Positions 1,061 to 27,280 of a DNA stretch of 32,000 nt are shown in pieces. A program made the position numbers and the translations under genes. This DNA is from Alteromonas lipotrueae (GTDB taxonomy: Bacteria; Pseudomonadota; Gammaproteobacteria; Enterobacterales; Alteromonadaceae), in assembly GCF_019249215.1 (NCBI RefSeq), contig NZ_JAESDI010000001.1:282728-314727 (forward strand), given 5' to 3'. Every line of letters starts with the position of its first letter. Position 1 is the stretch's first letter. The notes below the pieces were generated by a model. That model was not told where the DNA came from. It was given only the letters and a program-made list of their open reading frames with translations, and made no database searches.

Positions 1061-2197
1061 ATGAAGGATTTTTGGCGGTTTTTATCAGTCGTCGAGCGTG
1101 TTCTGAAAAGACCTTCTAAGTCACACTATAAATATACGAAAGGTAAAATACTGATGGCACGCACTGCCCTATTTTTAGTTCAAACTCCGCTACATGTTAT
1201 TAATGCGCTAGAAGCAATAACAGAGTTTAATATTGAACAAAGTACCTTTTTTATCGTGGCAAGCGATCACAACCCTAAGTGGCGGTTAATGATAAAACAA
1301 CTTTTGCCTCCCCATGCAAAAACTATATTTTGTACTCGTAATGATCACGATATTGAAGAAGGTACTAAGGCATATGCTCAACATTTAGATACGTTGAAAG
1401 CAGAGTCTTTAGACTTTGTCTTTTTTGCTGATGCACGCCTCTACATTTTTGTGGATATCGTCAACTCTCTTCAAAATCCCTCGACCATCCTCATGGATGA
1501 TGGCACTGGAACATTATTAGCAATTCACAGTTTAACGAGGTATGGCCTCTATTATGACATGTCAGTTAGCCGCAACATTGAAAGGCAACGCACTATTGAA
1601 GCTGTTAAAATAAAATATGGTCTATGGAACTTAAAGCCCGTTAGATATGACCTCTTTACCGTGTTTGATTATGAAGCTTGTGATTATTTTAACGTCGTGA
1701 ACAACCCGATGAAGCAACTGTGTTTTACCCATGATGACCAGAAATCTGATTCCGTTCTTTTTTTGGGTCAACCGTTTGTAAAAATAAATCACATGACCGC
1801 TAGCGATTACGAAATATGTTTAAATGAGATTTGTGACCAGTTCAAAGGTAAGCGAATGCTCTACCTGCCACACCCGAGAGAAGATCATACTTTGATCGAA
1901 TCACTTGCAGCAACGGGAAAAATTACGATTATACACACTGAACTAACAGCCGAGAATTTCCTTATAAGTCAAACCCACGCGCCTAAAACAGTGTGTGGTT
2001 TTTTATCTACGTCGCTTTGGAATATTGTTAAATTTCAGAAAGGGATAGACGTTCATGCTTTCAAAATACCAGCACATAGATTTAACGAAAAACTGGCAAA
2101 AAATCGTTCGAGAAGCAGTCATGTAACAGATTTAGAATTTATTAATCTTATTTACGACTATTACGAAAAACGCTTGCCAGTACATTTATTGAAATAA
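1061..2197 (+). CDS. GT52-like nonulosonic-acid (sialyl-type) transferase
   Basis: N-terminus LFLVQTPLHVINALEAI resembles the GT52 family start. D-D-G motif (MDDGTG, nt 1496-1504) and HP motif (YLPHPRE, nt 1871-1876) match the two motifs shared by bacterial GT38/GT52/GT80 sialyltransferases. FLGQPF lies between them. An alternative start ATG at 1154 (MARTALF) is more likely than 1061. Confidence 0.55.
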   Translation: MKDFWRFLSVVERVLKRPSKSHYKYTKGKILMARTALFLVQTPLHVINALEAITEFNIEQSTFFIVASDHNPKWRLMIKQLLPPHAKTIFCTRNDHDIEEGTKAYAQHLDTLKAESLDFVFFADARLYIFVDIVNSLQNPSTILMDDGTGTLLAIHSLTRYGLYYDMSVSRNIERQRTIEAVKIKYGLWNLKPVRYDLFTVFDYEACDYFNVVNNPMKQLCFTHDDQKSDSVLFLGQPFVKINHMTASDYEICLNEICDQFKGKRMLYLPHPREDHTLIESLAATGKITIIHTELTAENFLISQTHAPKTVCGFLSTSLWNIVKFQKGIDVHAFKIPAHRFNEKLAKNRSRSSHVTDLEFINLIYDYYEKRLPVHLLK

Positions 2198-2216
2198 AGC
2201 TGCAAAACAACAGAAA

Positions 2217-3020
2217 TTATGCGCGTTTATAAAGCCTGGTCATCATAGATCCCCAATAAGCGTGTCGCTTTTGTGAATCTCGTTTGTGCACGGAAGATAA
2301 CCAGTTTTCATTGTCCTGATCTGAACGGTAGACAGAGTCTCGATAGAGATCCACATGATCAGCAAGTACAAAATTTAGCTCAGCAAACAATTCATCAACC
2401 AATGCCGCTGAAAAATGTTGAAAATGGCTAGGATAATGATGTTGAACCCATTCATCCCGATACAAATTGGCGACCGTAGAGCTCGAATCTGGTGTTGCAG
2501 TGATAAAGAAATATCCCTCTTCTGACACTAAATCCGTAAGCTGTTTTAATAACGCCCTAAAGTCCACCAAGTGCTCTAACACTCCTCGCAGAACGACAAG
2601 GTTCATCGTCCCCTTTCCTACTTTATCAACACTCAAGTGATATCCTTTCTGTGTCAATGTCTCTACCGCGCCAATGGATAAGTCATCTCCAAAGGCCCGT
2701 ACGTTTTTAATTCCACCGTGTTCAACCAAGGCATCTAGGAAGTAGCCACCAGAGGCACCATAGTCAAATACAGGCCCTTCTAATGGATCGGTAATTTGGC
2801 TTTTAATCCAATCCACTTCTTGTATGTAAGATACTGCGCGCGCCTTATTTTTTACTTCCGAAGCCTGATGATTTTTTTCATGGTAATGCGCGTAATGGTT
2901 ACTAATTTCAGTTGGCGTTGGTACAGGTACCGTGCAAATATACAGGCAGTCATTACACCGATAATAATTACCCGTCCAAATTTTCAAATCACTACCCTGA
3001 CAGAAGCGGCATATTTTCAT
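2217..3020 (-). CDS. Class I SAM-dependent methyltransferase with N-terminal Cys4 zinc-ribbon
   Basis: N-terminal CRFC...CNDC zinc-ribbon. Glycine-rich SAM motif I (VFDYGASGGYFLDAL) followed by VVLRGVLEHL. Convergent with the GT52-like gene (19-bp gap) and 2 bp downstream of the preceding minus-strand gene. Confidence 0.65.
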   Translation of the reverse strand: MKICRFCQGSDLKIWTGNYYRCNDCLYICTVPVPTPTEISNHYAHYHEKNHQASEVKNKARAVSYIQEVDWIKSQITDPLEGPVFDYGASGGYFLDALVEHGGIKNVRAFGDDLSIGAVETLTQKGYHLSVDKVGKGTMNLVVLRGVLEHLVDFRALLKQLTDLVSEEGYFFITATPDSSSTVANLYRDEWVQHHYPSHFQHFSAALVDELFAELNFVLADHVDLYRDSVYRSDQDNENWLSSVHKRDSQKRHAYWGSMMTRLYKRA

Positions 3021-3022
3021 AA

Positions 3023-3955
3023 TTAATTACTCATCAGTCTATTGGTTAACGAGAACCAAAACGATTTATCTACGTGTGTGTTAAGCGATTTACCCGCCAA
3101 CGACATACGCTGACGCAATTGAGGGTCATCGGCAATTTTCTCAATAGCATTTATCAGCGATGGAATAGTATTTTCTGTTGATGGCAGTGCACACCCATAT
3201 GAATACAAAAAGCGATATGCCTCACTAAAGTTTGTTCGCCGACGAATCACGGTCGGCATTCCCATTAACGCTAATTCAACAGCACTAAGACCACCTTGAC
3301 ATATAACTGCGTTGCACGCCTTTAGGTCACTATAGGAGAAAGCTTGCGATTCTTTATCTTTCAGCTTACGGTGTAAAAACTCGTTAAGCGATAGCGATTT
3401 ATTTTTCTGAGGTGGATAAACAAGTGGCTCATATCCTTGCTCAGCTAACGCATCAACGATAGAAGGCGCCACTCCATCTGCATCACCTCCCCCCATACAA
3501 ACACCTATCAGTCGTGTATTACGGGCTTTGATAGGCTTCGAAGCACTTTCCATCCATTTCGACGAAGGGATGTTGCATAGCACAGCAGACAAATCCGTGA
3601 GAAAGTGAGCTGGTGCAGTCATCCCATTTAAGCTAGGTGCAACAACGTAATCGACATCTTCATTAACATCTGAAATATAAGACAGCGATATCTTCTTCGG
3701 CGCCCTTACGTAGCATTCAGTTTCTTTCTTTAGAGATAATCCATCGAGAAAAACGATATCGGCATCAACAATATTGCGCAGAGCGTACTCATCTTCGAGC
3801 AAGGGATCACCCCACGGCTCTCGATTAACGACTTTTAACGTTACAGCCATTTTAGGCGAAAGTATTTCTCTCAAAAGTTGAGCGCGAGCAACATGGCCCC
3901 ACCCCACATTTTTTCCTATTTCGGCAACGATGAGTACGCTTGCAACAATGTTCAT
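3023..3955 (-). CDS. PseG/SpsG-like UDP-sugar hydrolase (GT28-type fold), second copy
   Basis: N-terminal IGKNVGWGHVARAQLL parallels the G-x-GH-x-x-R motif of PseG (compare GLGHLMRCLAL in the 18067-19119 copy). C-terminal GGLSAVELALMGMPTV is GT28 C-domain-like. 4-bp overlap with the upstream NeuB-like gene. Confidence 0.55.
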   Translation of the reverse strand: MNIVASVLIVAEIGKNVGWGHVARAQLLREILSPKMAVTLKVVNREPWGDPLLEDEYALRNIVDADIVFLDGLSLKKETECYVRAPKKISLSYISDVNEDVDYVVAPSLNGMTAPAHFLTDLSAVLCNIPSSKWMESASKPIKARNTRLIGVCMGGGDADGVAPSIVDALAEQGYEPLVYPPQKNKSLSLNEFLHRKLKDKESQAFSYSDLKACNAVICQGGLSAVELALMGMPTVIRRRTNFSEAYRFLYSYGCALPSTENTIPSLINAIEKIADDPQLRQRMSLAGKSLNTHVDKSFWFSLTNRLMSN

Positions 3956-4941
3956 TTAATATCTGTTTTGTCTATAGGCTTACCTGCAGTGGCATCAGTA
4001 AGCAGAGTCTGACCAACAACCACATCTAATGACTCCAGAGGAAAGTCCCTTTCTGGACGCAAATAAGCTATATCCTCTTTGGTAATAACGTGACCTTTAG
4101 GCAGTGCGTGCCTGAAGTAAAGTCCTCTGCGCGCTCTTTTTGCGGTATAAAGTTCCGCTTCAGTTGGCTCTGAGCGTACACTTTGCATCGCACTTTGGGT
4201 ATCTTTTACCATTTTACAAAACACAGCGAGCGCTTCCCCGTCTAGGGAGTGCTTTACATCAAGACCGCCATTTGCGGGTGATAATGAAAAATGCTTTTCT
4301 ATCCATTCCACCCCTAAAGAAGCCGCTAAAACTGCGGCGGCGTAACCGTCAGAGTGGTCAGAGAAACCAATAGGAATACCGTATCGATTTTGTAACCAAG
4401 GAATAGTGCCCAACATGGCGTTAGACAAATCATGGGGGTATTCCGCCACACAGTGCATGAGAACGATATTGGAAGTATGACTCAATAACCGTTCGACCGA
4501 TTGATCTATTTGCTCAATGGTTGACATACCGGTGGAGAGAATTACTGGAAAGCCACTGGATCCAGCAGCATCAAGAAGATCATTGTAATTGTTATCACCG
4601 CTCGCAATCTTTATGAATGGAGGTTCTGTTTCGATAAGCTCTTCAAGCGATAACAAATCGAAAGGGGTTGATGTAACACAGCGATATCCCCTTTTAGTGG
4701 ATGCACGCTCTACAATACTTTTATATTGTTCATGAGGAATTCGAGAGTGGTGCCTTAACCAACGAACATCATCAATATCGTAGGTGCCATATTCGTAATC
4801 ACCTGGGGCATATAGGGTTTCATCGCGTATTAGTTGAAATTTTACGTAATCAGCACCAGCATTTAACGCAACCTCTGTATTGGTCCACAGCAAAGGAACT
4901 GAACCAAAGTGATTCATGGCCGCTTCAGCAATTATTTTCAT
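3952..4941 (-). CDS. Divergent NeuB-family nonulosonic-acid synthase (second copy) with C-terminal SAF-like domain
   Basis: NeuB landmarks in order: IIAEAAMNH, GADYVKFQ, FIKIASGD, ILSTGMST, LMHCVAEYP, GFSDHS, IEKHF, then a SAF-like tail (RRGLYFRHALPKGHVITKEDI). The first motif departs from the usual NHNGD-type sequence seen in the pseI copy. Confidence 0.7.
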   Translation of the reverse strand: MKIIAEAAMNHFGSVPLLWTNTEVALNAGADYVKFQLIRDETLYAPGDYEYGTYDIDDVRWLRHHSRIPHEQYKSIVERASTKRGYRCVTSTPFDLLSLEELIETEPPFIKIASGDNNYNDLLDAAGSSGFPVILSTGMSTIEQIDQSVERLLSHTSNIVLMHCVAEYPHDLSNAMLGTIPWLQNRYGIPIGFSDHSDGYAAAVLAASLGVEWIEKHFSLSPANGGLDVKHSLDGEALAVFCKMVKDTQSAMQSVRSEPTEAELYTAKRARRGLYFRHALPKGHVITKEDIAYLRPERDFPLESLDVVVGQTLLTDATAGKPIDKTDIK

Positions 4942-6005
4942 TTTACCGGCCTCAATTTAGTCAAGAAACGATTGATTCCTTCGACTTGAATATCATGAAG
5001 GGTATCCCAACAAGGGGGGATCGCGACAGATTCTGGCATATTCTCAACATGATTTTTTAAATCTTCGAAGATTGTTTCTCGGCGCTCAATAATATTTAAG
5101 TCGCACGCTTCCATTCCCAGTGTGTTAATCAGGCTTTCCGAACGTTCATCATAAGAAAGGTTTAGAGTAGGTCTTCTAAGCGACCAAAGCGGTAGACTTG
5201 TATGTACACGAAATGAGATAGCGGCTTCAACGCTATTTAAAATATTGAAGTATTCATACACGTCGCTTGTGTATAGGATATCTCGTCCAAACGACATAGC
5301 ATATTCAATATCTCTTTGATCGTTGCACAGTACGCGCGCCGGTTTATTGGTTCGTGATTCAAGTAAATCAAGACACCGCTCTGACAGATGGTGCATCTTC
5401 ATTTTTTGAGATAGGGGAATATTCATCTGATCGGGATTACGTACCGCAAGCAACGGGAAACGCGCTTCTTGCTGACCATCTTTTGAAAATTCTCTGTTAG
5501 CTAAATCAGAAATGTAGACTGAAGGACACCCACCGACAAGATGATCGGGATGGCGCATGAGCGATTCGATATGATTATACGTTGCTGCATCTCTTGAGAG
5601 AACGACATCAGCATGCTCCAACAGCGTCACCAAGTCGCCGTCATTGATTGCATCTGTTCGCCTTACATACGATAAATCTGAACCGTAAATATTTCCGTAA
5701 GACGTTGAGTAAACCATCATAGGCTTTCTCAGCGCTCTTAATGCCCCTTTATCAAATTCTATTTCGCCATTTTCAAAGAGGTTGCCGCCACCGATAATGA
5801 CGCCTGATGCCGTTTGATTTATATCGTATATTGTTTTTTTGGTTAGGCCTGACTTTGCACCAAACCCCGCAGCAGGTATGGTAATGAAATTCACCGCGCC
5901 GTTACATTGTCGCTCCACCATTCGTCGAACCGCCTGCTGAATCAGGAAGTTACCTATATTAAAGCCATGTCCAAATGGACAAATGTGGTAAATATTATAT
6001 CTCAT
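4938..6005 (-). CDS. Polysaccharide pyruvyl-transferase-family protein (CsaB/WcaK-like)
   Basis: Pattern IGNFLIQQAVRRM ... VIIGGGNLFENG ... VLSRDAATY ... ISFRVHTSL is reminiscent of the PS_pyruv_trans family. Recognised by eye only. 4-bp overlaps with both neighbours. Confidence 0.4.
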   Translation of the reverse strand: MRYNIYHICPFGHGFNIGNFLIQQAVRRMVERQCNGAVNFITIPAAGFGAKSGLTKKTIYDINQTASGVIIGGGNLFENGEIEFDKGALRALRKPMMVYSTSYGNIYGSDLSYVRRTDAINDGDLVTLLEHADVVLSRDAATYNHIESLMRHPDHLVGGCPSVYISDLANREFSKDGQQEARFPLLAVRNPDQMNIPLSQKMKMHHLSERCLDLLESRTNKPARVLCNDQRDIEYAMSFGRDILYTSDVYEYFNILNSVEAAISFRVHTSLPLWSLRRPTLNLSYDERSESLINTLGMEACDLNIIERRETIFEDLKNHVENMPESVAIPPCWDTLHDIQVEGINRFLTKLRPVK

Positions 6006-6724
6006 AATTTAATTCGTTCTTTGTATGCCATAGTAATTCGCTCAATACTTCCAACCTCAGTACTATCAAATACTGGATGTAGCCAGAGCGAACCAAAAAA
6101 GTCGGCGTCTTCTTCATAGTCAATGGTTAAGCGTACGGTTGAGTCAAAATCTGGAATGCTTAAATCATTGGCCTCGATGTTACAAATATTGTCGTTATTT
6201 AGCCTCTTACAAATTGGCGTAATATGTTCTCTTTCTTCTTCTGTATGGCTGCTGTTAACTATTTCACGTAGCCATCGTGAACGATACATTTCTAAAGAGA
6301 TCCCATAAGGGAATGTCCTCTTATTCAAGTTAGTGATCAATTGCGTGGCGTCATCCATATCGCTCAATTTTGAAACGATGTGCTTAATGAGAGGGAATAA
6401 AATGAGCGGACTATCTGCATTAAGCCGCCATAGCCACGCATCCACATTTGCACTCGCTAACTCACACAACCTAAGCATGGGCGACAAGGCGCCTCTATAA
6501 ACTTGCACACCCTTGCCTTCTCCATATCGTGCAATACTATCATCCACAGAGCGAGTTGATGTGGCTATTACTGGCTCTGCTATTGCACTCTCTTCATAGG
6601 CCAGAGCGCGAACTTGCGTAATAATACAATCAATGACGGAATGACTGCCTAAAATTGGCGATAATACCTTTCCAGGAAGCCGGCTAGAGTCGGCTCTAGC
6701 AAATACGACTGGCAGTATTCTCAT
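6002..6724 (-). CDS. SpsF-type cytidylyltransferase-family protein
   Basis: N-terminal ARADSSRLPGKVLSPILG (R-x-x-S-x-RLP-x-K), ATSTRSVDDSI, VYRGAL, RLNADSPL, FPYGISLEMY, EREHITP and RLTIDYEEDADFF follow the SpsF/CTP_transf_3 layout. Confidence 0.6.
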   Translation of the reverse strand: MRILPVVFARADSSRLPGKVLSPILGSHSVIDCIITQVRALAYEESAIAEPVIATSTRSVDDSIARYGEGKGVQVYRGALSPMLRLCELASANVDAWLWRLNADSPLILFPLIKHIVSKLSDMDDATQLITNLNKRTFPYGISLEMYRSRWLREIVNSSHTEEEREHITPICKRLNNDNICNIEANDLSIPDFDSTVRLTIDYEEDADFFGSLWLHPVFDSTEVGSIERITMAYKERIKL

Positions 6725-6949: not shown

Positions 6950-7891
6950 TTATTTTGACACAAGCGACATATCTATTTTTTTGTCCGACTCCACTCTTAA
7001 TCCTGCGTCTTTAAACTCACTAAATTCAACAACCTGTGTATTTGCATAATCCGTAAACGTGATATTTTTCTTCGGTACATTCCAGTCTGAACCATACAAA
7101 AAGGCTAAATATTCACTGGATTGCACTGGCGTTTGAACTTGGCAAGTGTTCCAGTTGACCAATGCCGTACCGTTAAAATGCTTTTCTGGCGCAAACCACA
7201 TCCCCAAGCTAGGAAGGTGGATAGATTTACCATCTTTGACTTCTCGCGCACTAAACGTTGTTTTGAACTGAGCTAGATTATTAAGGGGGTCGTCAAACTC
7301 CAATACAATACCAATACCTCTATTCTTTTTATCTAGGGTTTTTGAGACTTTCCAGGTTAAGTTACTTACGTTATTTTCGACAAATGCCTCGATAACATTC
7401 AGTACACTCTGGAAATAATGTGTGGGCATTGAAAAGTCGATATCGTCATCCCACTCGATAATATCTTTGTCTCGAATGATACCCAGCAATGTTCCAAAAT
7501 CGAGCACAAGAGGAACACTCTCATTTATGGCTATTGAAGATAGCTCGCTAATAATGTTGCGACCCAATTGTCGGCTTGCGGCATTATAAAATGGTGGAGT
7601 TTGTTTTTTTAAGTGACTTTTAGGTGGCACAACGATTTTTTGATGCGGGACATTGAGTTCATTGAGTAACTGCGCTTCAACTTCTACTGCCCACTGGGTG
7701 GTTATTACTATTTCATCGAATACTAAGTGTCCAATAGCGGCAGGGCTAATAACTGGCACGCCTTCGATAAGTAACCCTTCTTTCTGTTTATCGTTATCAA
7801 CAATACCAATAAACTCTCGGGACGTTTCATTATTAGAGATATACGTTTTTGAGCTTTCGCCTGCCCCAAATAATAGCGTTTTTGTTTTCAT
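6950..7891 (-). CDS. LicD-family phospho(no)-group transferase with N-terminal small Rossmann-like domain
   Basis: LicD signature LLGIIRDKDIIEWDDDIDF (DDDID at nt 7436-7450). The N-terminal ~90 aa (LLFGAGESSK...GIVDNDKQKEG..IEGVPVISP) resembles the small nucleotide-binding domain found on NeuD/PglD-type and sugar-transferase proteins. Confidence 0.7.
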   Translation of the reverse strand: MKTKTLLFGAGESSKTYISNNETSREFIGIVDNDKQKEGLLIEGVPVISPAAIGHLVFDEIVITTQWAVEVEAQLLNELNVPHQKIVVPPKSHLKKQTPPFYNAASRQLGRNIISELSSIAINESVPLVLDFGTLLGIIRDKDIIEWDDDIDFSMPTHYFQSVLNVIEAFVENNVSNLTWKVSKTLDKKNRGIGIVLEFDDPLNNLAQFKTTFSAREVKDGKSIHLPSLGMWFAPEKHFNGTALVNWNTCQVQTPVQSSEYLAFLYGSDWNVPKKNITFTDYANTQVVEFSEFKDAGLRVESDKKIDMSLVSK

Positions 7892-7918
7892 GGCCGAAAA
7901 TGCCTATTTTTCTCGTAG

Positions 7919-9019
7919 TTAAGACAAACTCTCTTTAATGATGGCTTTAACTAAATCTGGCGTGACTGCCGTTGTAAAATTACCCGCCCGGGAAGGATCG
8001 AGTTCGCGGTCAACAGCTTTAAGCATTTGCGGTAATTCTGCAAACTTCTTCATTTCGTCGTTGAGGCGTAATGCATCCAAGAGATTAATTATCCTATCGA
8101 CCATGTCTTGGGATAACTTTAATCTGTTTGCCCCTACAACCTTTAACATTGCCGCCAAAGTAAAACTACAGGCTAAACCGTGGGGTACCTTAAATTCAAT
8201 GGTCAAAGGATATGAGATTGCGTGGGCAAGTGCAGTTTTAGTTTCTGAAATCGCAAGACCTGATAAAAATGCCGCGAATTGCAGAGCCGCTCGGCCTTCA
8301 ATGTTCTTAGGTTTTTTAAGCACGGGCCGCAAATGCTCACAAATTAGTGCTATGGCTTGCACTGCATAGCGCTCAGAAGTGTTCGACCGCCTTACATTCC
8401 ATAATGATTCGATAGCATGGGACAAAGCATCTAATGCTGTCACCATGGTTTCATAAGGCGGTAATCCTACCGTTAAATTCGGATCTAAAACAACCTTATC
8501 GCTTTCAGCATGGTCAATAGAATATTTCTTTTTATCACCCGTATCCCATACTGTAGCAAATGGGGTGATTTCAGCCCCTGTTCCCGAGGTGGTGGGGATG
8601 GCGATTAACGCCACAGAATTTGACACTGCTTTTCGTGCAGCCATAAGTTGGTGTAGGCCGCCGCTTTGTGTTTGCAACATAACCCGAAGTACTTTAGAGG
8701 TGTCTAACACGCTACCACCGCCTAGCGCGATAATATGAGTGACTTTACTTGTTTTAAATCGCGCATAAAGTCCATCGATATAGGTTAACTCTGGATTAGG
8801 GGTTACATCATCAATCACGCGAAAACGTTCACATTTCAGTTTGGCTTTGAATGCATCCACAACACCACGCTTAACAAACCCCTGACTTGTAACAAGTAGA
8901 ACCTCATGGTTGGCTTCTATCAGTTTACTCACACTAGATAAGTAATCATCTGATTGAATTAACCGCTCGTTTAAGGCTTTAGTTAGCATGGGCGGCATGA
9001 AACTCATATCATTCGCCAT
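7919..9019 (-). CDS. Group III iron-containing alcohol dehydrogenase; predicted phosphonoacetaldehyde reductase
   Basis: Fe-ADH motifs GGGSVLDTSK, DALSHAIESLW and ALAHAISYPLT...PHG. Overlaps the 3' end of the phosphonopyruvate decarboxylase gene by 11 bp (start could instead be an internal Met a few codons in). The phosphonate-specific role is inferred from context. Confidence 0.65.
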   Translation of the reverse strand: MANDMSFMPPMLTKALNERLIQSDDYLSSVSKLIEANHEVLLVTSQGFVKRGVVDAFKAKLKCERFRVIDDVTPNPELTYIDGLYARFKTSKVTHIIALGGGSVLDTSKVLRVMLQTQSGGLHQLMAARKAVSNSVALIAIPTTSGTGAEITPFATVWDTGDKKKYSIDHAESDKVVLDPNLTVGLPPYETMVTALDALSHAIESLWNVRRSNTSERYAVQAIALICEHLRPVLKKPKNIEGRAALQFAAFLSGLAISETKTALAHAISYPLTIEFKVPHGLACSFTLAAMLKVVGANRLKLSQDMVDRIINLLDALRLNDEMKKFAELPQMLKAVDRELDPSRAGNFTTAVTPDLVKAIIKESLS

Positions 9020-10151
9020 GACTGTGCTGCATAAATGCTAATTTATTCTCGATGGGGGTAGACGTAGGACGTCCCAAATCACTTCTTGCACCTTGTTTAA
9101 TTTTAACTTCAAACAAAATTGGACCTTTACATTGAGGCATTGCAGCAATAATCTTTGACCACGCTTCAGTAAGTGAGTCACTATCATCACAACAATAATA
9201 CGCGTCGTATTTGCATCCTAATGCAATGCTTTCTATGTCAATACCTCCAGCTACAGTAGGCTGCCCACCCACCGAGTCATGGCATTGATTATTGAGTACC
9301 ACATGGATCAAGTTGTCAAGGTTACTTGCTCCAGCAATAGCTAGTGCCCCCATGTGCATTAGCATCGAACCGTCACCATCAAGCGCTATCACTTGACGGT
9401 TTGGTTTTACACGGGCTACTCCCATCGCAATGGATAAGGTATGTCCCATTCCACCAACGGTAAGGAAATCTGTATTATCTTGGTTATTTGTTTGTCTAAT
9501 TTCAAACAATTCCCTTGATGTTTTCCCAGTGGTTGAGATGATTAACTCTGCACCAGACATGTTTCCCAGCAAAAGAGACAGGGCTTCCTCTCTGCTCATC
9601 TCACATCGGTTTTCAACTGACTTACTGCTAGCCGAGTCCGTAGCTGAAAAGGTGTCTTTTCTAACCAAAATGGCTACAGGACATGTATTGGTTTTCATGG
9701 TTTCTAGTAATGGTGGCAAAGCATCTTCTAGAATCGAACCCGAATCTATCGTGATATAAGGGATTCCTAGCACATCCAACTGCTGCTGCGTTATTTGACC
9801 TTGTTTTACATGCTGTGGTTCGTCTTTAACATTAGGCTCACCTCGCCATCCAATCACCATCAACATTGGAATCCCGTAAACCTCTGGATCAGCAAGTGAC
9901 GTGAGTGGATTTATCGTGTTTCCCAATCCAGAGTTCTGCATATATACGACAGCGGGTTGCCCTGCCCCTAAGTAATGACCTGTCGCCATTCCAATAGCAT
10001 TGCCCTCATTAGCGGTAATCACATGCGCGTTAGATTCAAACGTAGAATCGATATAAGCACACAAATTTTTCAGTAGCGAGTCTGGTACACCGTAATAGTT
10101 GCTCAAGCCATGTTGGGCGAGTAAGTGACAAAACAATTCAGGGGATACCAT
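9009..10151 (-). CDS. ppd: Phosphonopyruvate decarboxylase (thiamine-diphosphate dependent)
   Basis: N-terminus GVPDSLLK, mid-region IPMLMVIGWRGEP, and the TPP-binding GDGSMLMHMG...VVLNN motif. ~380 aa, typical Ppd size. Sits immediately downstream (4-bp gap) of PEP mutase. Confidence 0.85.
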   Translation of the reverse strand: MVSPELFCHLLAQHGLSNYYGVPDSLLKNLCAYIDSTFESNAHVITANEGNAIGMATGHYLGAGQPAVVYMQNSGLGNTINPLTSLADPEVYGIPMLMVIGWRGEPNVKDEPQHVKQGQITQQQLDVLGIPYITIDSGSILEDALPPLLETMKTNTCPVAILVRKDTFSATDSASSKSVENRCEMSREEALSLLLGNMSGAELIISTTGKTSRELFEIRQTNNQDNTDFLTVGGMGHTLSIAMGVARVKPNRQVIALDGDGSMLMHMGALAIAGASNLDNLIHVVLNNQCHDSVGGQPTVAGGIDIESIALGCKYDAYYCCDDSDSLTEAWSKIIAAMPQCKGPILFEVKIKQGARSDLGRPTSTPIENKLAFMQHSHGE

Positions 10152-10155
10152 AGTG

Positions 10156-11457
10156 CTACTTACCGCCCGGTATCAATTCTAGAATTTGTTTAATAGGCAT
10201 CATTTGGGCATCAACTTCTGAACTTCGCCCATGGCGTAAAATAGACTCTGCAGTGTTGCACATTGCTGGGTATGCGCTTCGCAGTAATTGATTAGCATAA
10301 ATAACTACATTCACACCCCGCGCTTGAAGCTCATGTTCAAAGACGGTGTTATAACTAGAAGGCACCACTACCAACGTCTTTTTGTTTTCGAATTTTGCAT
10401 AACGGTCACAAAATTCAAATATTTCATCTGGTGATTTTTCTCGGCTATGGATCATAATGCCATCAGCCCCAGCCTCTAAAAATGCTTTAGCTCGCTCGAG
10501 AGCATCATCTATACCTTTGCCTAATATTAAGCTTTCAATACGGGCAATAATCATAAAGTCATTGGTAGCTTGAGCACTTTTACCCGCTGATATTTTTTGG
10601 CTAAAAGCTTCAATTGTATCTTGAGTTTGCGCTACATCAGTGCCGAATAAAGAGTTCTTTTTAAGTCCGGTTTTATCTTCAATAATAACCGCAGACACAC
10701 CCAGCCTTTCTAAGGTCTTCACCGTGAAAGTGAAATGCTCTGTTTTTCCGCCCGTATCGGCGTCATAAATAATCGGTTTTGTAGTAACTTCTAGCACTTC
10801 ATTTAAGGTGCTCATACGAGAAGATACATCTACGGCTTCAATATCGGGTTTTCCCTTTGCTGTTGAATCTGTAAGGCTACTTCCCCACATCCCATCAAAC
10901 TCTTTAACCCCAGTATCCGTTTCTATCTTTGTATTCTCGATTATCAACCCTGACAAGGCGTTGTGAATATCCAAAAAGCGAACCAGAGGCTTAGCAGCCA
11001 TTAATCGTTTTAAGGATTTCAATCGAATGGCAGGCGTGGTCCCCACTTCTTTCATCGCTTGGTGTAATTGTGAAGAAGAAATACCTTGGGTATAAGGCAC
11101 TTCTATGAGCTTCCCTCCCCATTGGGCCAAGCAATCGATAACCCGCTGTCGAGTTTTCTGCTGAACACCCGTTTTCCAATCATCACCATGCACGACATAA
11201 TCAGGTTTCAATGTCTCTAGATTAGGAACATAGTCTAATGTAGTTTGAGGTATTACAGCATCCACACCTTTTATATTTTCAATTACAACTTTCCGTTGCT
11301 CAAACTCCATAAAAGGCACTCGCTTATAACTCGCGATTGCAGCGTCGGTTAAAAGCCCGACGGTGACGTCGCCTAATTTGGCGGCGCTCTTGAGAACATT
11401 AAGATGGCCAGGATGAACCAAATCGGCACTCATTCCTACATAAACACTCTTTGTCAT
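10156..11457 (-). CDS. pepM: Bifunctional cytidylyltransferase / phosphoenolpyruvate phosphomutase fusion
   Basis: N-terminal ~130 aa carry the HxGH cytidylyltransferase motif ([13 protein letters not shown]). The C-terminal domain has PEP mutase landmarks [28 protein letters not shown] and ANQLLRSA. The PepM-diagnostic EDKX5NS motif ([10 protein letters not shown]) was verified at nt 10651-10680. Confidence 0.9.
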
Positions 11458-11574: not shown

Positions 11575-14500
11575 CTAAGCATTAATATCAGATATCATGT
11601 TTTTCACACGGGTTTCATTTGCGTCTTCTAAAAGTAATGAATCTATCTGTATATTTCCTCTGCACACCTTACCTCTATTTCCAATATTATCGCATGCTAA
11701 GCTAGAAGCTAGAACGCCTTTACGAGGGATAGCAATATACCTTGCATATTCTATATATTCTTCAACCCATGAGAGAGATTCAAGTAATGGTGCTAAGTAG
11801 CGTTGCTTTTGAATTGCACTGCTGTTCGTGAACTCATATTTAGGCAAGAACATGAACACATCTTCTTGATTACAGAGAAAACCTGGCACAAAATGTTGCT
11901 TAGCAGTGTGCACAAAAGGTCTATCTCCAGCTTCAAATGAAGGAATATCTAGCGCATTCGGCGAATACCAAATATAAATGCTAACCTTACTCTTAAGTTC
12001 GAATAATCGTGTAACAACACTTTCTTCAACAAGACTGAAGGTTCCAACGAGGCTGTTTATTTCGCTACCAATATTGCTCAATAAACTATCCAGAGCAGTT
12101 ACCTTGCGCCTAAAATGTATATGATAAGCATCACATTCACTACTTTTTGGGGTCTTAGCTAACGATAGTGCCGAGTCAATTGTTTCCACTAATTTCTTAT
12201 CTGTCTCTTCAATATCTAGGCTGAAAGTTTTATCTCCAGATGTTATCCACGCTTTTATAAACACAGATTCTCTTAAAAATACGCAAGAGCTGGTAGTATC
12301 GAATGCCGAAGCATCGCCGATGTAGCTAATTGATACTTTCTCTAATGTATCTAGCCATTGCAAACGCGCTTCATCAAGCGCCGTCAAACTATCCGTTGTG
12401 GAGGATAATTTGCTGAAGACTGCATTGGCATAGTTGATAGTTCCATACAGCAAATAAAATAAGAGTGATTTCTTCATTTGATACGACTCGAATATCATCT
12501 CCTTTTGAACCTTAATAAACTCATCTGCTTCGTCATTTGATGAGAAGGGTACTTTTACTTTTTCCATGAAGATAGAAAGCTCGTCTTTCAGTGCATCAAC
12601 ATCGAATCTCGCATTAAATAGAGAGGGATATTCATCAGGTTTTTCAATTGGTTGAAACGCATTATTTTTTATAACATCTAGTGCAGCATCTCTTTGACTA
12701 GATGATGCAGAAATTAATACCATATCTAAAGGTAAAGGCGTTGCACCGGCTATTTTTGCACCATCGCTGCAGTTGAAACATGTAAGCCCATTTTGCGCTA
12801 AGGACTGCTCGATGATCGTTTTGGAAAGTTTAAACTCGTACTTCGTGAACACAGTGGCTCTGAAATTACCAGGCACAACAATTGATGTATTATTGCTGGC
12901 CTCATAGTCATAAACCTCTTTACCGTTGACATAGTAGGAAGATTCTTTCGAGTGGTGTTTAGTCTTGTCATAAAAGCCTAAATCTACGCCAAATAAGTAA
13001 ATCTGATCCATCCCAATTTTTGAAAACAGATTGATAGCTAAATTTGATACCGTCGGGAATGCGAAACGTAACTCTTCATAGTTAGCCCGTCCTAAAACTT
13101 CTAAGGCTGAAACGGTGGACGACTCGCCATCTTTAAATGCTATATAAACATCGTTGAAAAGGTCACAAGTGTCAGGGTGAATACCATTAACTGAGATTAA
13201 GTTTATTTGTTTGAGATAATTAAAATCATCGACTCGACTACACCAATCAAAGGTAGAGCGATTTTGCTCAATTTCAGCATGAAAATCTGGCGTAATATCG
13301 TGTTTATACAATGCTGAAAGCGCAGTTCCGCAAGAGACAACAATTGCATTCTCTCGGTACTCCAAAATGGTTTCTATCGCCGAATCTAAAGACGGGCCAT
13401 TCCCTACGATAAAAACAGGAACTTCTTTGTTTTCAAAAGATAAATATTGCGCAGGCTTATTACGCAGAAGTGGAAAGCCTCTTTTTAATGCCTCAGTAGT
13501 GTGAGAGATACCATACCTTGCATGGTCAAAATATTCCCCCATAGAAATAACGACCTGAAGTTGTTCCCTCAATTGAGCAATTGCCGACACTAATGCTGAA
13601 TTGTAATAGCTCTGATAGAAATAGGTATTCGCAAGTATATAGGGGCCAATAGAATAAAACTGATTTAGCAAATCTTTAAATAAATTAGTGCCATCGTCAC
13701 CGATGTTAATGTACAAACGCCCTTCTTTTTCATCAATACCAGATAAAATTTCATCCCACTTTATGGCAAATAAAGATGCGTAAAAAAAATCTTTATTAGG
13801 TTCGCATACAAATAACTTTTCTACGTCGTGATTATTGAACAAACGCTCTATTTGGTAACCCACTCCAACGCCAAAAAGAATCATGGACTTCAGCGTATCT
13901 GGCAATTGTCCTTCATCTTGCTCTACTTGTTTTAAGAGCGATTCTGTTTTATTGACAAATTGATAGTGGATATATTTCTTAAGCTTTTTCCCTTTATAGC
14001 CAAGTATTAGTCCGTCTTTATTCGGCTGATCACTAAAACTGTCAAAATTTAGCGCGCATTCCTGTTTGGGTGATTCTCCATACCAAGAAACAAGGGAGTC
14101 CTTCTTCACTAAATTGATTTCACCATTGCTGTCTTCTACAGGCAACCATGTTTGCGGTTCGTAATGACTAAAACTGTTAAAAATATCGGGAAAATATTTT
14201 TTGAAGGCAGCGAGGTTACTTTTCAGTCTACCTTGTGCTTCTGCACTAGGATCCTGGTAATTTTCTAATTGTATTGATTGCGTCCAAGGTGGCACGTATT
14301 CTGTTGGACTTCTTAGTTTATATGAAGTAATACCAGTACTCTTAAGCCGAGCCCAACCGCCCTGAATACATGTTTTTTCTATGGTATCGAAAATAGGAGA
14401 ATTGTAATGTTTGTATAAATAAAATCCCCCTATGTCGAAATGCTGTCTAAGCTCTTCAATATCGCTAACAATATTTCGGCCATCTTTTTCGAGTTGAAAA

Positions 14501-15108
14501 AATAACCGCGTACCTTTGTCGTTAGCTTCTGCCAAAACGTCGTTCCATTTTGAGCAAAATACCGAGCATTTGAAATATTGTGCTTCAGGCTCGTAAATAA
14601 CTAAGTTGGTTATAGAGTGTTTTTTTATTAACTCAACAATATGGAAGCCTAATCCAACCCCTAACACTACAAGAGTATCTATGGTCTCGGGTAAGGCACT
14701 TCGTTGTATATAATGTTGATATGAAAAAGTATTCGCTAAAGATCCCTCTAAACTTTCATTAGTTTCGACCTCTGCCGGATTAGTTTCATCGCATTGCTTA
14801 AGGTCGACAAAAATCGAGTGGGTACTATTTACCAAATATTGTTTACTGATTTCCGCTTCAGGATCTAGCCCATAAAGCGTTCGCCCGATGCCATAGTCGA
14901 CTAAGTTAAACTGCCCGTTTTTGTTGCAGATAATAGAAATATTGTCATTGTTTATTTTTTGTATATTAGCTATTAGTGACGGTATAAATTGTCTAAAAGC
15001 AAACAGGTTTTTCTTATACTGTCGATCGATTAGCTCGGCGGTATACTTTTCGATTTGCGCTTGTTTCTCTTCATCTTTAAAAATATGCAATCGAACATTT
15101 TTAAGCAT
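11575..15108 (-). CDS. maf: Motility accessory factor (Maf, DUF115/MAF_flag10) flagellin nonulosonate transferase, oversized 1177 aa
   Basis: Core Maf motif VFIVGNGPSLD (GNGPS verified at nt 13390-13404), followed by VVSCGTA ... HAEIEQN ... IYLFGVDLGF. Located between pseH and the phosphonate genes. The N-terminal domain is present twice (see repeat feature). Confidence 0.8.
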   Translation of the reverse strand: MLKNVRLHIFKDEEKQAQIEKYTAELIDRQYKKNLFAFRQFIPSLIANIQKINNDNISIICNKNGQFNLVDYGIGRTLYGLDPEAEISKQYLVNSTHSIFVDLKQCDETNPAEVETNESLEGSLANTFSYQHYIQRSALPETIDTLVVLGVGLGFHIVELIKKHSITNLVIYEPEAQYFKCSVFCSKWNDVLAEANDKGTRLFFQLEKDGRNIVSDIEELRQHFDIGGFYLYKHYNSPIFDTIEKTCIQGGWARLKSTGITSYKLRSPTEYVPPWTQSIQLENYQDPSAEAQGRLKSNLAAFKKYFPDIFNSFSHYEPQTWLPVEDSNGEINLVKKDSLVSWYGESPKQECALNFDSFSDQPNKDGLILGYKGKKLKKYIHYQFVNKTESLLKQVEQDEGQLPDTLKSMILFGVGVGYQIERLFNNHDVEKLFVCEPNKDFFYASLFAIKWDEILSGIDEKEGRLYINIGDDGTNLFKDLLNQFYSIGPYILANTYFYQSYYNSALVSAIAQLREQLQVVISMGEYFDHARYGISHTTEALKRGFPLLRNKPAQYLSFENKEVPVFIVGNGPSLDSAIETILEYRENAIVVSCGTALSALYKHDITPDFHAEIEQNRSTFDWCSRVDDFNYLKQINLISVNGIHPDTCDLFNDVYIAFKDGESSTVSALEVLGRANYEELRFAFPTVSNLAINLFSKIGMDQIYLFGVDLGFYDKTKHHSKESSYYVNGKEVYDYEASNNTSIVVPGNFRATVFTKYEFKLSKTIIEQSLAQNGLTCFNCSDGAKIAGATPLPLDMVLISASSSQRDAALDVIKNNAFQPIEKPDEYPSLFNARFDVDALKDELSIFMEKVKVPFSSNDEADEFIKVQKEMIFESYQMKKSLLFYLLYGTINYANAVFSKLSSTTDSLTALDEARLQWLDTLEKVSISYIGDASAFDTTSSCVFLRESVFIKAWITSGDKTFSLDIEETDKKLVETIDSALSLAKTPKSSECDAYHIHFRRKVTALDSLLSNIGSEINSLVGTFSLVEESVVTRLFELKSKVSIYIWYSPNALDIPSFEAGDRPFVHTAKQHFVPGFLCNQEDVFMFLPKYEFTNSSAIQKQRYLAPLLESLSWVEEYIEYARYIAIPRKGVLASSLACDNIGNRGKVCRGNIQIDSLLLEDANETRVKNMISDINA
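13579..15018 (-). repeat. Internal tandem duplication of the Maf N-terminal domain (copy 1 about aa 31-245, copy 2 about aa 295-510)
   Basis: Collinear matches at a constant offset of about 263 aa: KKNLFAFRQFIPSL / LKSNLAAFKKYFPDI; LVVLGVGLGFHIVEL / MILFGVGVGYQIERL; VIYEPEAQYFKCSVFCSKWNDVL / FVCEPNKDFFYASLFAIKWDEIL; GTRLFFQLEKDG / GRLYINIGDDG. Confidence 0.75.
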
Positions 15109-15691: not shown

Positions 15692-17056
15692 TTATAGAGA
15701 ACGTTGTTTTTTAAACCTTGGGCTAAATTGCACATTATCATCGAAGATAAACTTAGCGGGTACTTGGAAGTTTTCTAGGTGCGCTTTACAAAAGCGTTTA
15801 ATCGCCGCCTTGAGCTCTTTTTTATTTTCATGCAGTGATCCTTCGGTGCTATCAACCAGCCTAATTTTGCTATATACCACATTACCCAACAGAGCATTTG
15901 GTTCGCCATACACTTCAGCTTCAGCGATATAGTCAAGTTGTTGTAATACACTTTCTACTTCCGCAGGGTATACCTTTTGACCACCAACATTGATTATTTC
16001 TGAGTCTCGCCCTAGCACCTTGATATATTCACCATTCACCTCGACCTTATCGCCGGTATGAAACCACCCATCAGGGGTATAAGGGCTAGGCGCATTCAAA
16101 TAACCTAACATACCCGAATATGCCTTCACCTCTAAAATATTATCGGTGGTTATTCTCGTCTGGAAACCTTCCCCTCCTACTTTCATCCAAAGTGAAGATG
16201 ACGACTTAGATTTAGAGCGTAAGATGCCAATCTCGGATAGGCCGTAGGTTTGGAGCAATTTGATGTCAGGAAATAACTGATTAAACCTAAGTAAAACTGA
16301 TTCAGGCATGGGTTCGGTGCCGTATGTAACAGTACTTAATGAGCTAAGATCGTAACGCTTGTAGGCTTCACTAATGAGGATTAAGTTGATAAAGGTTGGT
16401 GATGTAGGTAGGAGTTCGGCTCTAAACTTGTCAACGGCTTCAAGAACGGTGTCAGGTTTACGATCTGTTACGGTAATAACGCATCCGGCGTTAGACAAGG
16501 TATACAATAAAGTATTAACCCCACCTATATGGTCATACAACAAAAAAGTGATTGCACGTAATGCATGCCGGCCGACTTTAAACTTTTCGAGTAACTTTGC
16601 CATGTCATGAACAGCAGCTTTACTTTTGCCTGTCGACCCAGATGAAAATAACACAAGACCCGGTATTTTTTGCCCGCGTAAGTCAGCTATGAGTTCATGA
16701 GAAGCCTTCGTTGATAACGTATCGATTTCATACTCATCGTTATCTTTAATTGTCACCACAACTTCGACCTGTGCAGTTTCAATAAACTCATCCCTCTTAT
16801 GCGCTACAGAGGTAGTGGTTGGAACTAATATAGTGGCTCTTTCAATAAGTGCCAGCAGTAACGCCACCGAGCTTGGAGAATAGTCAGCGTCTACCATCAC
16901 CACAGTCCCTTCGGTAACGCCATAGTTGGCTAAAACATCTTGCCAAAACTGCGTTTTTTCTAGGAGCCATCCGTATGAATATGCCTGATCTCGCCAAACA
17001 ATAGCATCGCTATTCTTATTCTTTTCAAATATTTCCAGAAAAAAATCAATAAACAT
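15692..17056 (-). CDS. Adenylate-forming enzyme (acyl-CoA/acyl-ACP ligase family)
   Basis: AMP-binding core motifs LFSSGSTGKSKAA, YGLSE, GWFHTGDKVEV and GRDSEIINVGGQKVYPAEVE. The start codon overlaps the SDR stop (ATGA-type, 1 nt). Confidence 0.8.
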   Translation of the reverse strand: MFIDFFLEIFEKNKNSDAIVWRDQAYSYGWLLEKTQFWQDVLANYGVTEGTVVMVDADYSPSSVALLLALIERATILVPTTTSVAHKRDEFIETAQVEVVVTIKDNDEYEIDTLSTKASHELIADLRGQKIPGLVLFSSGSTGKSKAAVHDMAKLLEKFKVGRHALRAITFLLYDHIGGVNTLLYTLSNAGCVITVTDRKPDTVLEAVDKFRAELLPTSPTFINLILISEAYKRYDLSSLSTVTYGTEPMPESVLLRFNQLFPDIKLLQTYGLSEIGILRSKSKSSSSLWMKVGGEGFQTRITTDNILEVKAYSGMLGYLNAPSPYTPDGWFHTGDKVEVNGEYIKVLGRDSEIINVGGQKVYPAEVESVLQQLDYIAEAEVYGEPNALLGNVVYSKIRLVDSTEGSLHENKKELKAAIKRFCKAHLENFQVPAKFIFDDNVQFSPRFKKQRSL

Positions 17057-17766
17057 CAGGCTCCCCCTAAATATAAAATTTGTCCTGTAATGAAACTGCT
17101 TTCTGGTTTGATATAAAAATCGATGACATTAGACACATCCGCCATTTCGCCGAATCTCTTTATACTCTGCTTTTCGAGCAGTTTATTTAACTTATCATCA
17201 GGAACATTTTTAATTAGATCCGTTTGAATTGGCGTTGGGCCAATGGCGTTCACAGTAACGCCAAATTCTGAAAATTCTTTCGCCAATGTTTGTGTCAGGC
17301 TTTCTACAGCAGATTTTGACGCGGCATAAATGGCTTCGCCTTCTAAAGCAAAAGGCACGGCAACTGTAGAGAAGTTAACAATTCGCCCATATTGATTTTT
17401 ACGCATTAGCTTGACCGCTTCGCGGCAAAATAAGAAACTCGCAAATACATTAGTTGAGAAAATTTTCTCTACCGTAGATAGGGGCGTCAACATCGCGTGA
17501 TTCATAGCCGCTATGCCAGCATTGTTGATAAGTACATCGAGCCGCTTATGACGCTTACGAATTGACGAGAAAAGAGATTTGACGTCAATTTCACTTGCCA
17601 CATCTAAACTAAAATGTTGGTAATTTTGGTGTTCAATTGATAATTCCGAACGGCTACACCCAATAACAATATGACCTGCATTTAAATAGTAATGAGTTAG
17701 GTATAACCCTATTCCCCTGCTTGATCCGGTTATCAAAATGACTTGTTGAGTATGTGACGTATCCAT
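17056..17766 (-). CDS. Short-chain dehydrogenase/reductase (3-oxoacyl-ACP reductase-like)
   Basis: TGSSRGIG cofactor motif, NNAG, and the catalytic YAASKSAV (Y-x-x-x-K). 1-nt overlap with the ACP gene upstream. Confidence 0.8.
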   Translation of the reverse strand: MDTSHTQQVILITGSSRGIGLYLTHYYLNAGHIVIGCSRSELSIEHQNYQHFSLDVASEIDVKSLFSSIRKRHKRLDVLINNAGIAAMNHAMLTPLSTVEKIFSTNVFASFLFCREAVKLMRKNQYGRIVNFSTVAVPFALEGEAIYAASKSAVESLTQTLAKEFSEFGVTVNAIGPTPIQTDLIKNVPDDKLNKLLEKQSIKRFGEMADVSNVIDFYIKPESSFITGQILYLGGA

Positions 17767-23136: not shown

Positions 23137-23448
23137 TTATTTGTATTTTTTTACGGCAGACCTGCTACGAACAAATCGAGTTATGTCATCTTTGGCTTCT
23201 TCAAGCAAGCTCTGCGCCATCTCTTTTAGTCTATTATTAACATCAAGCTCGAGATTTGCAAATTCTTGTTTATTCTCAGGTGCTAAGGTTTCCAAGTGTT
23301 CTTTAATTACGGAGTCCCGCCGTACTAACAGCGCCTTGAGTTCGGAAAAATCAGATTCTGAAGAACTTTCGAATTGCGCCGCTATTTGCTCGTTTATTTC
23401 ACGCAGCGCAATTGGTGTTTGAGAATGGTCTAAATCGTTTTTATTCAC
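23137..23448 (-). CDS. Small helical protein, FliT-like flagellar chaperone candidate
   Basis: 103 aa, charged and predicted helical. Its GTG start overlaps the fliS stop (GTGA), so it is probably translationally coupled. The position after fliS matches fliT-type genes. No diagnostic motif recognised. Confidence 0.35.
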   Translation of the reverse strand: MNKNDLDHSQTPIALREINEQIAAQFESSSESDFSELKALLVRRDSVIKEHLETLAPENKQEFANLELDVNNRLKEMAQSLLEEAKDDITRFVRSRSAVKKYK

Positions 23449-26767: not shown

Positions 26768-26895
26768 TAGATTACCTCCTAGGGATTCAATGACGCCTGT
26801 GCTATCATTAAACCCTTCCAGTTCAAATTAGCAGGGTCACTACTCCCGACTAACTTCCTCTTGCAAAGTAAATTACATTACCCCTCAACAATAGG

Positions 26896-26922
26896 TATCG
26901 GCCAAGTCTTTAGCTTCTTTAG
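26896..26922 (-). promoter_or_regulatory. Sigma-28 promoter of flagellin 25928-26767
   Basis: Minus strand reads TAAAGAAG-N11-GCCGATAC, with an A/T-tract block immediately upstream (26923-26950). About 120 nt upstream of the start codon. Confidence 0.65.
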
Positions 26923-27246: not shown

Positions 27247-27280
27247 AATAAAAAAAAGGCCGAGACATTAAATCTCGGCC
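27247..27280 (-). terminator. Rho-independent terminator of flagellin 27490-28341
   Basis: Perfect 8-bp stem GGCCGAGA / TCTCGGCC (27258-27265 and 27273-27280) with a 7-nt loop, followed on the minus strand by TTTTTTTATT. Confidence 0.8.

Follow-up and report, generated by a model that had tools for sequence, protein, structure and literature searches.

A long Maf flagellin glycosyltransferase of Alteromonadaceae with a doubled N-terminal domain, a constant scaffold and an exchanged C-terminal cassette

How a Maf glycosyltransferase chooses its donor sugar and its acceptor site is an open question: 5MU5 is the only structure solved, PMC11339370 calls the functions of the Maf N- and C-terminal domains unclear, and the specificity modules of Shewanella (a tetratricopeptide repeat (TPR) extension and GlfM) have been identified only recently. 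The question is raised anew by a maf gene of Alteromonas lipotrueae, situated in a 32,000-nt stretch of DNA (hereinafter the window; contig NZ_JAESDI010000001.1, positions 282,728 to 314,727), which a preliminary description of the sequence singled out as coding for a 1177-aa protein with a tandemly duplicated N-terminal domain and a long additional C-terminal region. What, then, are the extra parts of this protein, and what might they do? We find that the protein is a genetic mosaic, in which aa 1 to ~901 form a conserved scaffold and aa ~902-1177 a cassette that has been replaced by recombination. This cassette is inherited along with the downstream genes of the flagellin glycosylation island and independently of the flagellin sequence; hence, the flagellum glycosylation island has one of its borders inside maf, at a defined conserved helix. 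Among the published descriptions that we found, such an organization of a constant scaffold with a swappable cassette is new.

The evidence for the mosaic comes from comparisons between loci (cited below by L numbers), for which we used the best 80 of the 242 stretches found to encode relatives when a single genome of each species was scanned. Across these, the identity of the tail is bimodal at equal identity of the core: L069 and L078 share a core identity of 0.92 and a tail identity of 0.78, as against 0.92 and 0.22 for L039 and L048. The DNA of the latter pair is 93% identical and collinear over 12.7 kb and becomes unalignable from about codon 903 of maf, including the 9 kb downstream of it. 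At the protein level, the identity of this pair drops from 96% (aa 877-901) to 16% (aa 902-922), directly after a conserved helix of the form SLLFY..YGT.NYANA..KL. In the 34 pairs combining similar cores with unrelated tails, the breakpoints lie in codons 890-904 (22 pairs), 788-800 (8 pairs) or 919-939 (4 pairs). Downstream DNA is common to all 28 tail-similar pairs, as compared to the tail-dissimilar pairs, 59 of 63 of which have no common downstream DNA and 44 of 63 of which still share upstream DNA; as the pairs are not independent, these counts are descriptive only. Even against L001 and L002, which possess the same island type, the window loses DNA similarity from about codon 900 (L001) or codon 771 (L002) up to codons 1055-1060.

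On balance, we consider it rather probable that this is an Alteromonadaceae Maf with a retained additional N domain (hereinafter N1, the canonical copy being N2), in which the cassette adapts a constant scaffold to the sugar specific to the island. Such an enzyme is predicted to act in the cytoplasm, where it would transfer a cytidine monophosphate (CMP)-activated nonulosonic acid onto Ser/Thr residues of flagellin prior to export, the sugar presumably being a pseudaminic acid (Pse) derivative made by the products of the adjacent pseBCHGIF genes. Here, N2, the core and the helical domain would catalyze the transfer and bind flagellin in the manner of other Mafs, N1 would supply a retained second N-domain function within the scaffold, and the cassette would tune that scaffold by either selecting the modified donor or docking island-encoded tailoring enzymes. 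More tentatively, the cassette (~902-1177) could be a plug-in specificity module whose allele is matched to the modified nonulosonate or to the tailoring enzymes of its island, with N1 forming a second site for a ligand or partner; if true, one recombination event that replaces the island also re-programmes its glycosyltransferase.

The main rival is passive hitch-hiking, which we regard as possible though not as the likeliest account: the conserved 5′ part of maf would merely anchor recombination, and the tail would travel with old island lineages while performing a constant job. The clustering of the junctions right after the most conserved helix is what such an anchor predicts, PMC4033161 documents that replacement islands are more divergent at their borders, the ratio of nonsynonymous to synonymous substitution rates (dN/dS) of the tail is below 1, and the near-invariant R946, P1089-K1090, G1143 and R1145 point to a function shared by all tails. 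However, hitch-hiking of whole islands does not explain L033 and L061, which have swapped the tail alone between flanks that are 83-87% identical, and a constant role is not expected where identity is at noise level (0.15-0.22) and length and fold are nevertheless kept.

Several points likewise count against an adaptive cassette. Any sequence lying beyond the recombination junction, towards the island, should be linked with that island irrespective of a functional match, and the whole-domain dN/dS of the tail, being below 1, gives no direct sign of diversifying selection. Four pairs contradict a simple coupling, with the tails of L033 and L061 differing despite their similar flanks, and the pair counts are tempered by the non-independence mentioned above. 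Further, L034 and L055 carry the phosphonate module also found in the window, yet their tails have no BLAST-detectable similarity to that of the window, and the roles proposed for N1 and the tail derive from conservation and linkage. Tail type could thus not be linked to the phosphonate module. Were the cassette to lack a role in specificity, we would be dealing with an ordinary Maf subfamily, common and already annotated in databases, in which one domain is present in an additional copy. The Mafs of Alteromonadaceae resemble a natural domain-swap series, with scaffolds up to 92% identical (N2 and core) joined to unrelated cassettes, and with different sets of sugar genes adjoining them next to almost unchanged flagellins; donor and adaptor specificity are therefore directly testable with chimeras.

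The flagellins bear on another explanation, namely that the tail is an acceptor-recognition module co-evolving with them, comparable to the TPR of Shewanella oneidensis Maf-1, whose C-terminal extension binds flagellin (bioRxiv 10.1101/2023.12.03.569772); in the present protein, the tail follows the helical domain. We think this unlikely. The flagellins of Alteromonas gracilis L016 and L018 are 90-95% identical to those of the window, central region included, but the tails are almost devoid of detectable similarity, with just 57 residues alignable by BLAST at ~33% identity. Thus, the cassette does not follow the acceptor. The Mafs of these two loci are ~45% identical to that of the window overall (39% in N1, 59% in N2 and 66% in the core). 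Moreover, the tail is modeled as an α/β domain rather than a helical bundle.

Turning to the scaffold, a complete canonical Maf unit, comprising N2, a GT-A-like core and a helical C-terminal domain, is present at aa ~285-956. PF01973 (MptE-like, DUF115) scores 104.2 bits at aa 552-714 against a Pfam cut-off of 34.6, and PF20157 exceeds its cut-off of 23.5 bits twice N-terminal to it. The domain order is hence two copies of Maf_flag10_N and one MptE-like/DUF115 core, followed by ~375 further residues, and the doubled N domain is already detectable with the existing Pfam models. The Magnetospirillum Maf of known structure (5MU5, 666 aa) aligns with aa 296-895 in a phmmer search (E = 9.4e-44). 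A full-length AlphaFold2 (AF2) model computed with 44 homologues as input (mean predicted local distance difference test score (pLDDT) 85.7, predicted template modeling score (pTM) 0.73) recovers the same structure in Foldseek (E = 1.6e-31, TMt 0.69). With 5MU5 aligned to ~285-956, the true extras are N1 (aa 1-275) and the α/β tail (aa 957-1177). The full-length model additionally yields weak methyltransferase-type matches in Foldseek (BioC, PMT and spermine synthase, E = 0.004-0.04), in line with the account in PMC11339370 of the canonical Maf N domain as a degenerate Rossmann-like fold with weak methyltransferase-like motifs and a function not established.

The invariant core columns of the 44 homologues include G569-S573, D608, H610, E612, E614, D709 and H718-S720. 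Invariance extends to GNGPS, to the P-D-F motif (D608) and to numerous acidic and histidine residues of the core, which align with 5MU5. Their assignment to the published Asp324 and Glu415 numbering is ambiguous; a literature summary of 5MU5 places the CMP-sugar site of Maf in the core. The mean pairwise identity is 0.63 for N2 and 0.63-0.66 across N2 and core, and both display a dN/dS of 0.03-0.07. Beyond the core, the AF2 model has helices spanning aa 803-904, of which the block 871-900 has a conservation of 0.76. By analogy with the Maf-1 TPR and GlfM, the helical domain is likely to be the flagellin-binding element. The preliminary description had counted ~460 aa after the core, with the last ~240 resembling nothing recognizable; this stands for aa ~957-1177, whereas aa 801 to ~956 are the canonical helical domain.

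N1 is a genuine second copy of the N domain. When scored alone against PF20157, N1 obtains 128.4 bits (E = 3.6e-37, aa 31-244) and N2 287.5 bits (E = 9e-86, aa 294-522). The two are 26% identical over 244 columns in BLASTP (E = 2e-21) and match each other in a profile-profile comparison with a probability of 99.7% (E = 2.2e-26). The strongest self-diagonal of the protein has an offset of 263 aa and reaches a score of 90 in a 40-aa window, as compared to a maximum of 47 in 20 shuffles. Accordingly, the initial claims of an uninterrupted 1177-aa ORF (open reading frame), a tandem N-terminal module repeated at ~263 aa and a lone DUF115 core with GNGPS at nt 13390-13404 are all borne out, the last to the nucleotide, by the reading frame, by the self-alignment and by a domain scan in which PF20157 occurs twice and PF01973 once. 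The inference that two maf genes have not simply been fused is also sound, because the N domain alone is duplicated. In a tree of 79 N1 and 79 N2 sequences rooted with the N domain of 5MU5 as the outgroup, N1 and N2 are each monophyletic, which implies a single duplication before the sampled genera of Alteromonadaceae diverged.

The G-x-G-x-G...E-P motifs are kept without variation in both copies and in 5MU5, and N1 lacks a segment of 20 residues that is kept in N2 (aa 362-381). N1 is the faster-evolving copy, with a mean pairwise identity of 0.44 compared to 0.63 for N2, and its dN/dS of 0.06-0.16 denotes purifying selection; its pLDDT in the AF2 model is mostly 80-94. The retention of the motifs together with the purifying selection indicates that N1 is functional, and, as it keeps the G-x-G-x-G...E-P signature, it probably performs the same role in binding a ligand or partner as the canonical N domain. 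The divergence of N1 tracks that of N2 (Spearman 0.76) and of the core (0.65), not that of the tail (0.09). With the core controlled for, the partial correlations of N1 and tail (-0.10) and of helical domain and tail (0.09) are about zero and thus offer no evidence of a co-evolution of N1 with the tail.

These data also bear on the idea, put forward in the preliminary description, that doubling the N domain creates a pair of binding sites, occupied either by two CMP-sugars or by two partners (flagellin or FliS), in keeping with the two nonulosonate branches encoded in the island. The invariance of the G-x-G-x-G...E-P motif in both copies and the presence of two NeuB and two CMP-transferase homologues in the island speak for it, and two ligand or partner sites as such are plausible. 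However, N1 and N2 occur together in all 78 intact loci, whose islands are very different, while the second NeuB is shared by L001 only; with the doubling universal and the second branch thus restricted, the link to the two branches is unsupported. Further, N1 co-varies with the conserved scaffold and not with the island-linked part, and the CMP-sugar site lies in the core according to the above-mentioned summary of 5MU5. As an account of the doubling, we therefore hold it to be quite unlikely.

The doubled architecture is a family norm and not a feature of this genome. The lists of matching proteins and genomes were filled by Alteromonadaceae, and our statements on distribution cover that family. 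All of the best 120 protein clusters are 1036-1213 aa long and contain both Pfam families; the named sources include Alteromonas, Paraglaciecola, Catenovulum, Neptunicella, Bowmanella and their relatives, and the automatic cluster names read either ‘motility associated factor glycosyltransferase family protein’ or ‘MptE-like’. The best 80 loci belong by name to Alteromonadaceae or close relatives, bar one record titled Flavobacterium. The match starts from residue 1 in 79 of them, the exception (L063) starting at a contig edge, and the ORF is 1146-1304 aa long in 78. The N1-N2 architecture is present in every one of these 78 intact loci, whatever the content of the island. An identical protein (P0001) is present in public data.

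The notion that N1, the tail or both are relics without a function, or that the long ORF is a fusion created by an assembly error or frameshift, is effectively refuted by conservation, and we give it next to no weight. The faster evolution of N1 and the loss of its conserved 20-residue segment could be taken as decay; yet over 100 protein clusters and 78 independent genomes show the same length, every domain has a dN/dS well under 1, AF2 folds N1 and the tail confidently, and N1 contains invariant residues. The Mafs characterized so far do not reach this length and possess a single N domain (5MU5 with 666 aa, S. oneidensis Maf-1 with 822 and Maf-2 with 441), and the observation that the present protein is far longer than these is correct. 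Our literature search found no description of the double-N architecture, of PF20157 or of any Alteromonadaceae Maf. Thus, of the two possibilities raised at the outset, that proteins of this length and architecture are common and that they are already characterized, the first is the case and no characterizing paper was found for the second: this is a genuine, widespread Maf subfamily that is uncharacterized in the published work we found.

Two of the best 80 loci deserve separate mention. The record titled Flavobacterium sp. W21_SRS_FM6 (L037, NZ_JBGQOM010000004.1) has a long Maf of the Alteromonadaceae type, 51% identical, adjoining a matching flagellin, and this assembly is probably mislabeled or contaminated. 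In L066 (Catenovulum sp. SX2, a complete genome), tblastn covers residues 1-1171 of the query, and the frame read from the start stops after 768 codons, which reflects a frameshift, a pseudogene or a sequencing error.

The tail itself is a well-folded domain by prediction: a model of it alone, resting on the tails of homologous proteins, has a pLDDT of 91.9 and a pTM of 0.89. It has no Pfam match at E up to 10 and no NCBIfam match, a single chance match (E = 0.15) in a sequence-profile search of the PDB, and no fold relative at E <= 1e-3 in the PDB or BFVD by Foldseek. The best fold matches are weak (MnmM, E = 0.055, TM ~0.3; viral methyltransferases, E ~0.007, TM ~0.2), all being of a generic Rossmann or methyltransferase-like kind. 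A further copy of a Maf domain was considered and rejected, with profile-profile probabilities of <=0.3% against N1, N2, the core and the helical domain. A phmmer search with aa 951-1177 gave 0 matches among 1.84 billion representatives, a result to be read with caution and not as absence. Likewise, a tail profile searched against a collection of 5.8 billion clusters recovered none, not even its own source proteins. Built from 29 tails, this profile recovers 97 of 200 family proteins, about half, when run locally with hmmsearch at the same database size, with scores of up to 288 bits. Hence, the null result from the large collection is a technical false negative, and we do not claim that the tail is absent elsewhere.

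The length of the tail is kept at 210-259 aa across the 44 homologues, with a mean pairwise identity of just 0.15. The near-invariant residues of the cassette are R946-E947, G1061, P1064, P1089-K1090, D1140, G1143, R1145 and G1146. The dN/dS of the tail is 0.02-0.32, or 0.10-0.32 in pairs with unsaturated dS, and positive selection was not detected in any domain, the whole-domain dN/dS being below 1 in each. The tail is therefore constrained, and its diversity consists of old alleles and their replacement as opposed to detectable positive selection. In the Glaciecola and Brumicola loci (L067-L070, L073, L074 and L077-L079), tails of 303-363 aa follow aa ~941, which implies an insertion or an additional element in the cassette (total lengths 1253-1304 aa).

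Comparison with known systems helps place this architecture. The 5MU5 Maf of Magnetospirillum magneticum AMB-1 has the same succession of N domain, GT-A-like MAF_flag10 core and helical C-terminal domain, and the same G-x-G-x-G...E-P-N motif; unlike the present protein, which is 511 aa longer, it has a single N domain and no α/β tail. In S. oneidensis, Maf-1 (822 aa, with a C-terminal TPR) and the 441-aa Maf-2 with its partner GlfM illustrate C-terminal modules that set binding specificity (bioRxiv 10.1101/2023.12.03.569772). The likeness is that a common MAF_flag10 unit gains specificity via a module that is appended or separate and can be fused or split. However, the Shewanella Mafs have one N domain and their modules are helical and bind flagellin, while the module described here is α/β and hypervariable and goes with the island, not with the flagellin. 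No TPR family was found by Pfam in aa 801-1177 at E up to 10. The Maf-2/GlfM layout is also absent: the gaps of 118 nt and 39 nt flanking maf contain no ORF of at least 100 aa, and Maf-2 is a short Maf without a C-terminal domain as opposed to the ~375 aa following the core here. The PseD/PseE-type Mafs of Campylobacter jejuni (NF050051) match weakly over N2 and core (aa 409-793). The protein is not an equivalog or orthologue of PseD, its score of 65.1 bits being far from the cut-off of 670.

At the level of the locus, the flagellum glycosylation island of Alteromonas has been described by Lopez-Perez and Rodriguez-Valera (PMC4033161, PMC3698932) as a replacement flexible genomic island, with homologous recombination at its borders. 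The present locus agrees in that the same position harbors differing gene sets in close relatives; it differs in that one border falls inside maf and splits the enzyme into a constant and a replaceable part, whereas neither maf nor a border inside it is mentioned in the passages of PMC4033161 retrieved by a term search.

The exchange of C-terminal cassettes after a conserved motif is also known from CdiA-CT, Rhs-CT and the target-recognition domains of HsdS. The likeness is confined to genetic architecture, i.e., a conserved N-terminal bulk, a sharp junction and a variable C-terminus with its downstream genes, and we claim no membership in these systems: the Maf tails, with their common PK and GNRG motifs, are mutually homologous, Maf is a glycosyltransferase of the cytoplasm, and the genes downstream of it specify enzymes of sugar biosynthesis and not immunity proteins.

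Table 1. Features of the maf gene and its island, in window coordinates
Feature	Residues (aa)	Position (nt)	Strand	Basis or remark
Complete maf ORF, 1177 aa	1-1177	11575-15108	-	No internal stop; stop codon at 11575-11577
N1, faster-evolving Maf N-terminal Rossmann-like copy	1-275	14284-15108	-	PF20157, AF2
N1 motif GVGLG	150-154	14647-14661	-	
N1 motif YEPE	172-175	14584-14595	-	
N1-N2 linker	276-293	14230-14283	-	Mean pairwise identity 0.28; pLDDT dip at ~aa 260-270
N2, canonical Maf N-terminal domain	294-522	13543-14229	-	PF20157; aligns with 5MU5 N domain
N2 motif GVGVG	413-417			
N2 motif CEPN	435-438			
MAF_flag10/MptE-like GT-A-type catalytic core	546-800	12709-13473	-	PF01973; 5MU5 core alignment
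GNGPS motif of the core	569-573	13390-13404	-	
Helical C-terminal domain, conserved part	801-901	12406-12708	-	Aligns with 5MU5 C-terminal helical domain
Junction helix SLLFYLLYGTINYANAVFSKL	881-901	12406-12468	-	Closes the conserved helical part
Variable cassette	902-1177	11578-12405	-	Similarity breakpoints; co-inheritance with downstream DNA
Two variable helices of the cassette	902-956	12241-12405	-	
α/β tail of the cassette	957-1177	11578-12240	-	
Cassette motif D1140..G1143-N-R1145-G1146	1140-1146	11671-11691	-	
Flagellin glycosylation island around maf (approximate extent)		834-23372	.	Gene families; DNA similarity limit

The island of the window (Table 1) contains pseB/C/F/I/G/H, an AMP-ligase gene, a short-chain dehydrogenase/reductase (SDR) gene, maf, a phosphonate branch and a LicD-family gene, in addition to a second NeuB, a second CMP-transferase, a methyltransferase and a GT52-like gene. 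It is bordered by fliS and a small ORF on one side and by a flagellin gene on the other. The context of maf includes four flagellins, flaG-fliD-fliS and the full Pse pathway (PseB/C/H/G/I/F), with PseG and PseH above their NCBIfam cut-offs. Against A. gracilis (L016 and L020), the flagellar genes show 72-80% DNA identity, which stops at ~23372, and inside the island similarity returns only in the maf core. The locus thereby conforms to the replacement-island pattern, with a different island at the same position as in L016 and L020 and with sharp borders in many pairs. In L016, three GT2 genes and a 6-deoxyhexose pathway adjoin maf, and no pse genes are present within 10 kb; in the island of L016 and L018, the GT2 and 6-deoxyhexose genes take the place of the pse and phosphonate genes of the window.

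Next to maf, the phosphonate branch (6950-11457, reverse strand) codes for a fusion of a cytidylyltransferase with phosphoenolpyruvate mutase (TIGR02320, 401 bits, above cut-off), a phosphonopyruvate decarboxylase-like enzyme of the thiamine pyrophosphate-dependent type, a phosphonate-type iron-containing alcohol dehydrogenase and a LicD-family transferase. The gene content suggests a flagellin glycan decorated with phosphonate. This module also adjoins maf in L001, L002, L005, L034 and L055.

A possible second nonulosonate-type branch (1061-6724) comprises the second NeuB (3952-4941), a second CMP-transferase-like gene (6002-6724), a weak PseG-like gene (3023-3955), a pyruvyl-transferase-like gene (4938-6005), an S-adenosylmethionine-dependent methyltransferase (2217-3020) and a GT52/polysialyltransferase-like gene (1061-2197), the last on the strand opposite to the others. 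Judged by its predicted products, this set suggests a glycan longer than one sugar. The whole set, with an orthologue of the second NeuB, is shared by L001 only.

Between pseG and pseH lie genes for an AMP-binding (acyl-adenylate-forming) enzyme and an SDR (15692-17766, reverse strand), common to L001, L002, L006 and L009, whose products may acylate the Pse derivative. On the flagellar side, a conserved ORF of 103-105 aa follows fliS (23137-23448, reverse strand; 9509-9826 in L016) and is found in many relatives at 33-63% identity, with no match in Pfam or NCBIfam. It lies directly upstream of maf in L016, and the island border relative to A. gracilis (~23372) falls inside it. Finally, the window contains five flagellin-type genes (9-833, 25928-29856 and 31047-31916). 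Three of these flagellins are tandem paralogues with a mutual identity of 81-87%, a divergent one (41-44%) is located at the far end of the island, and the fifth is a 289-aa ORF matching only the C-terminal domain of flagellin.

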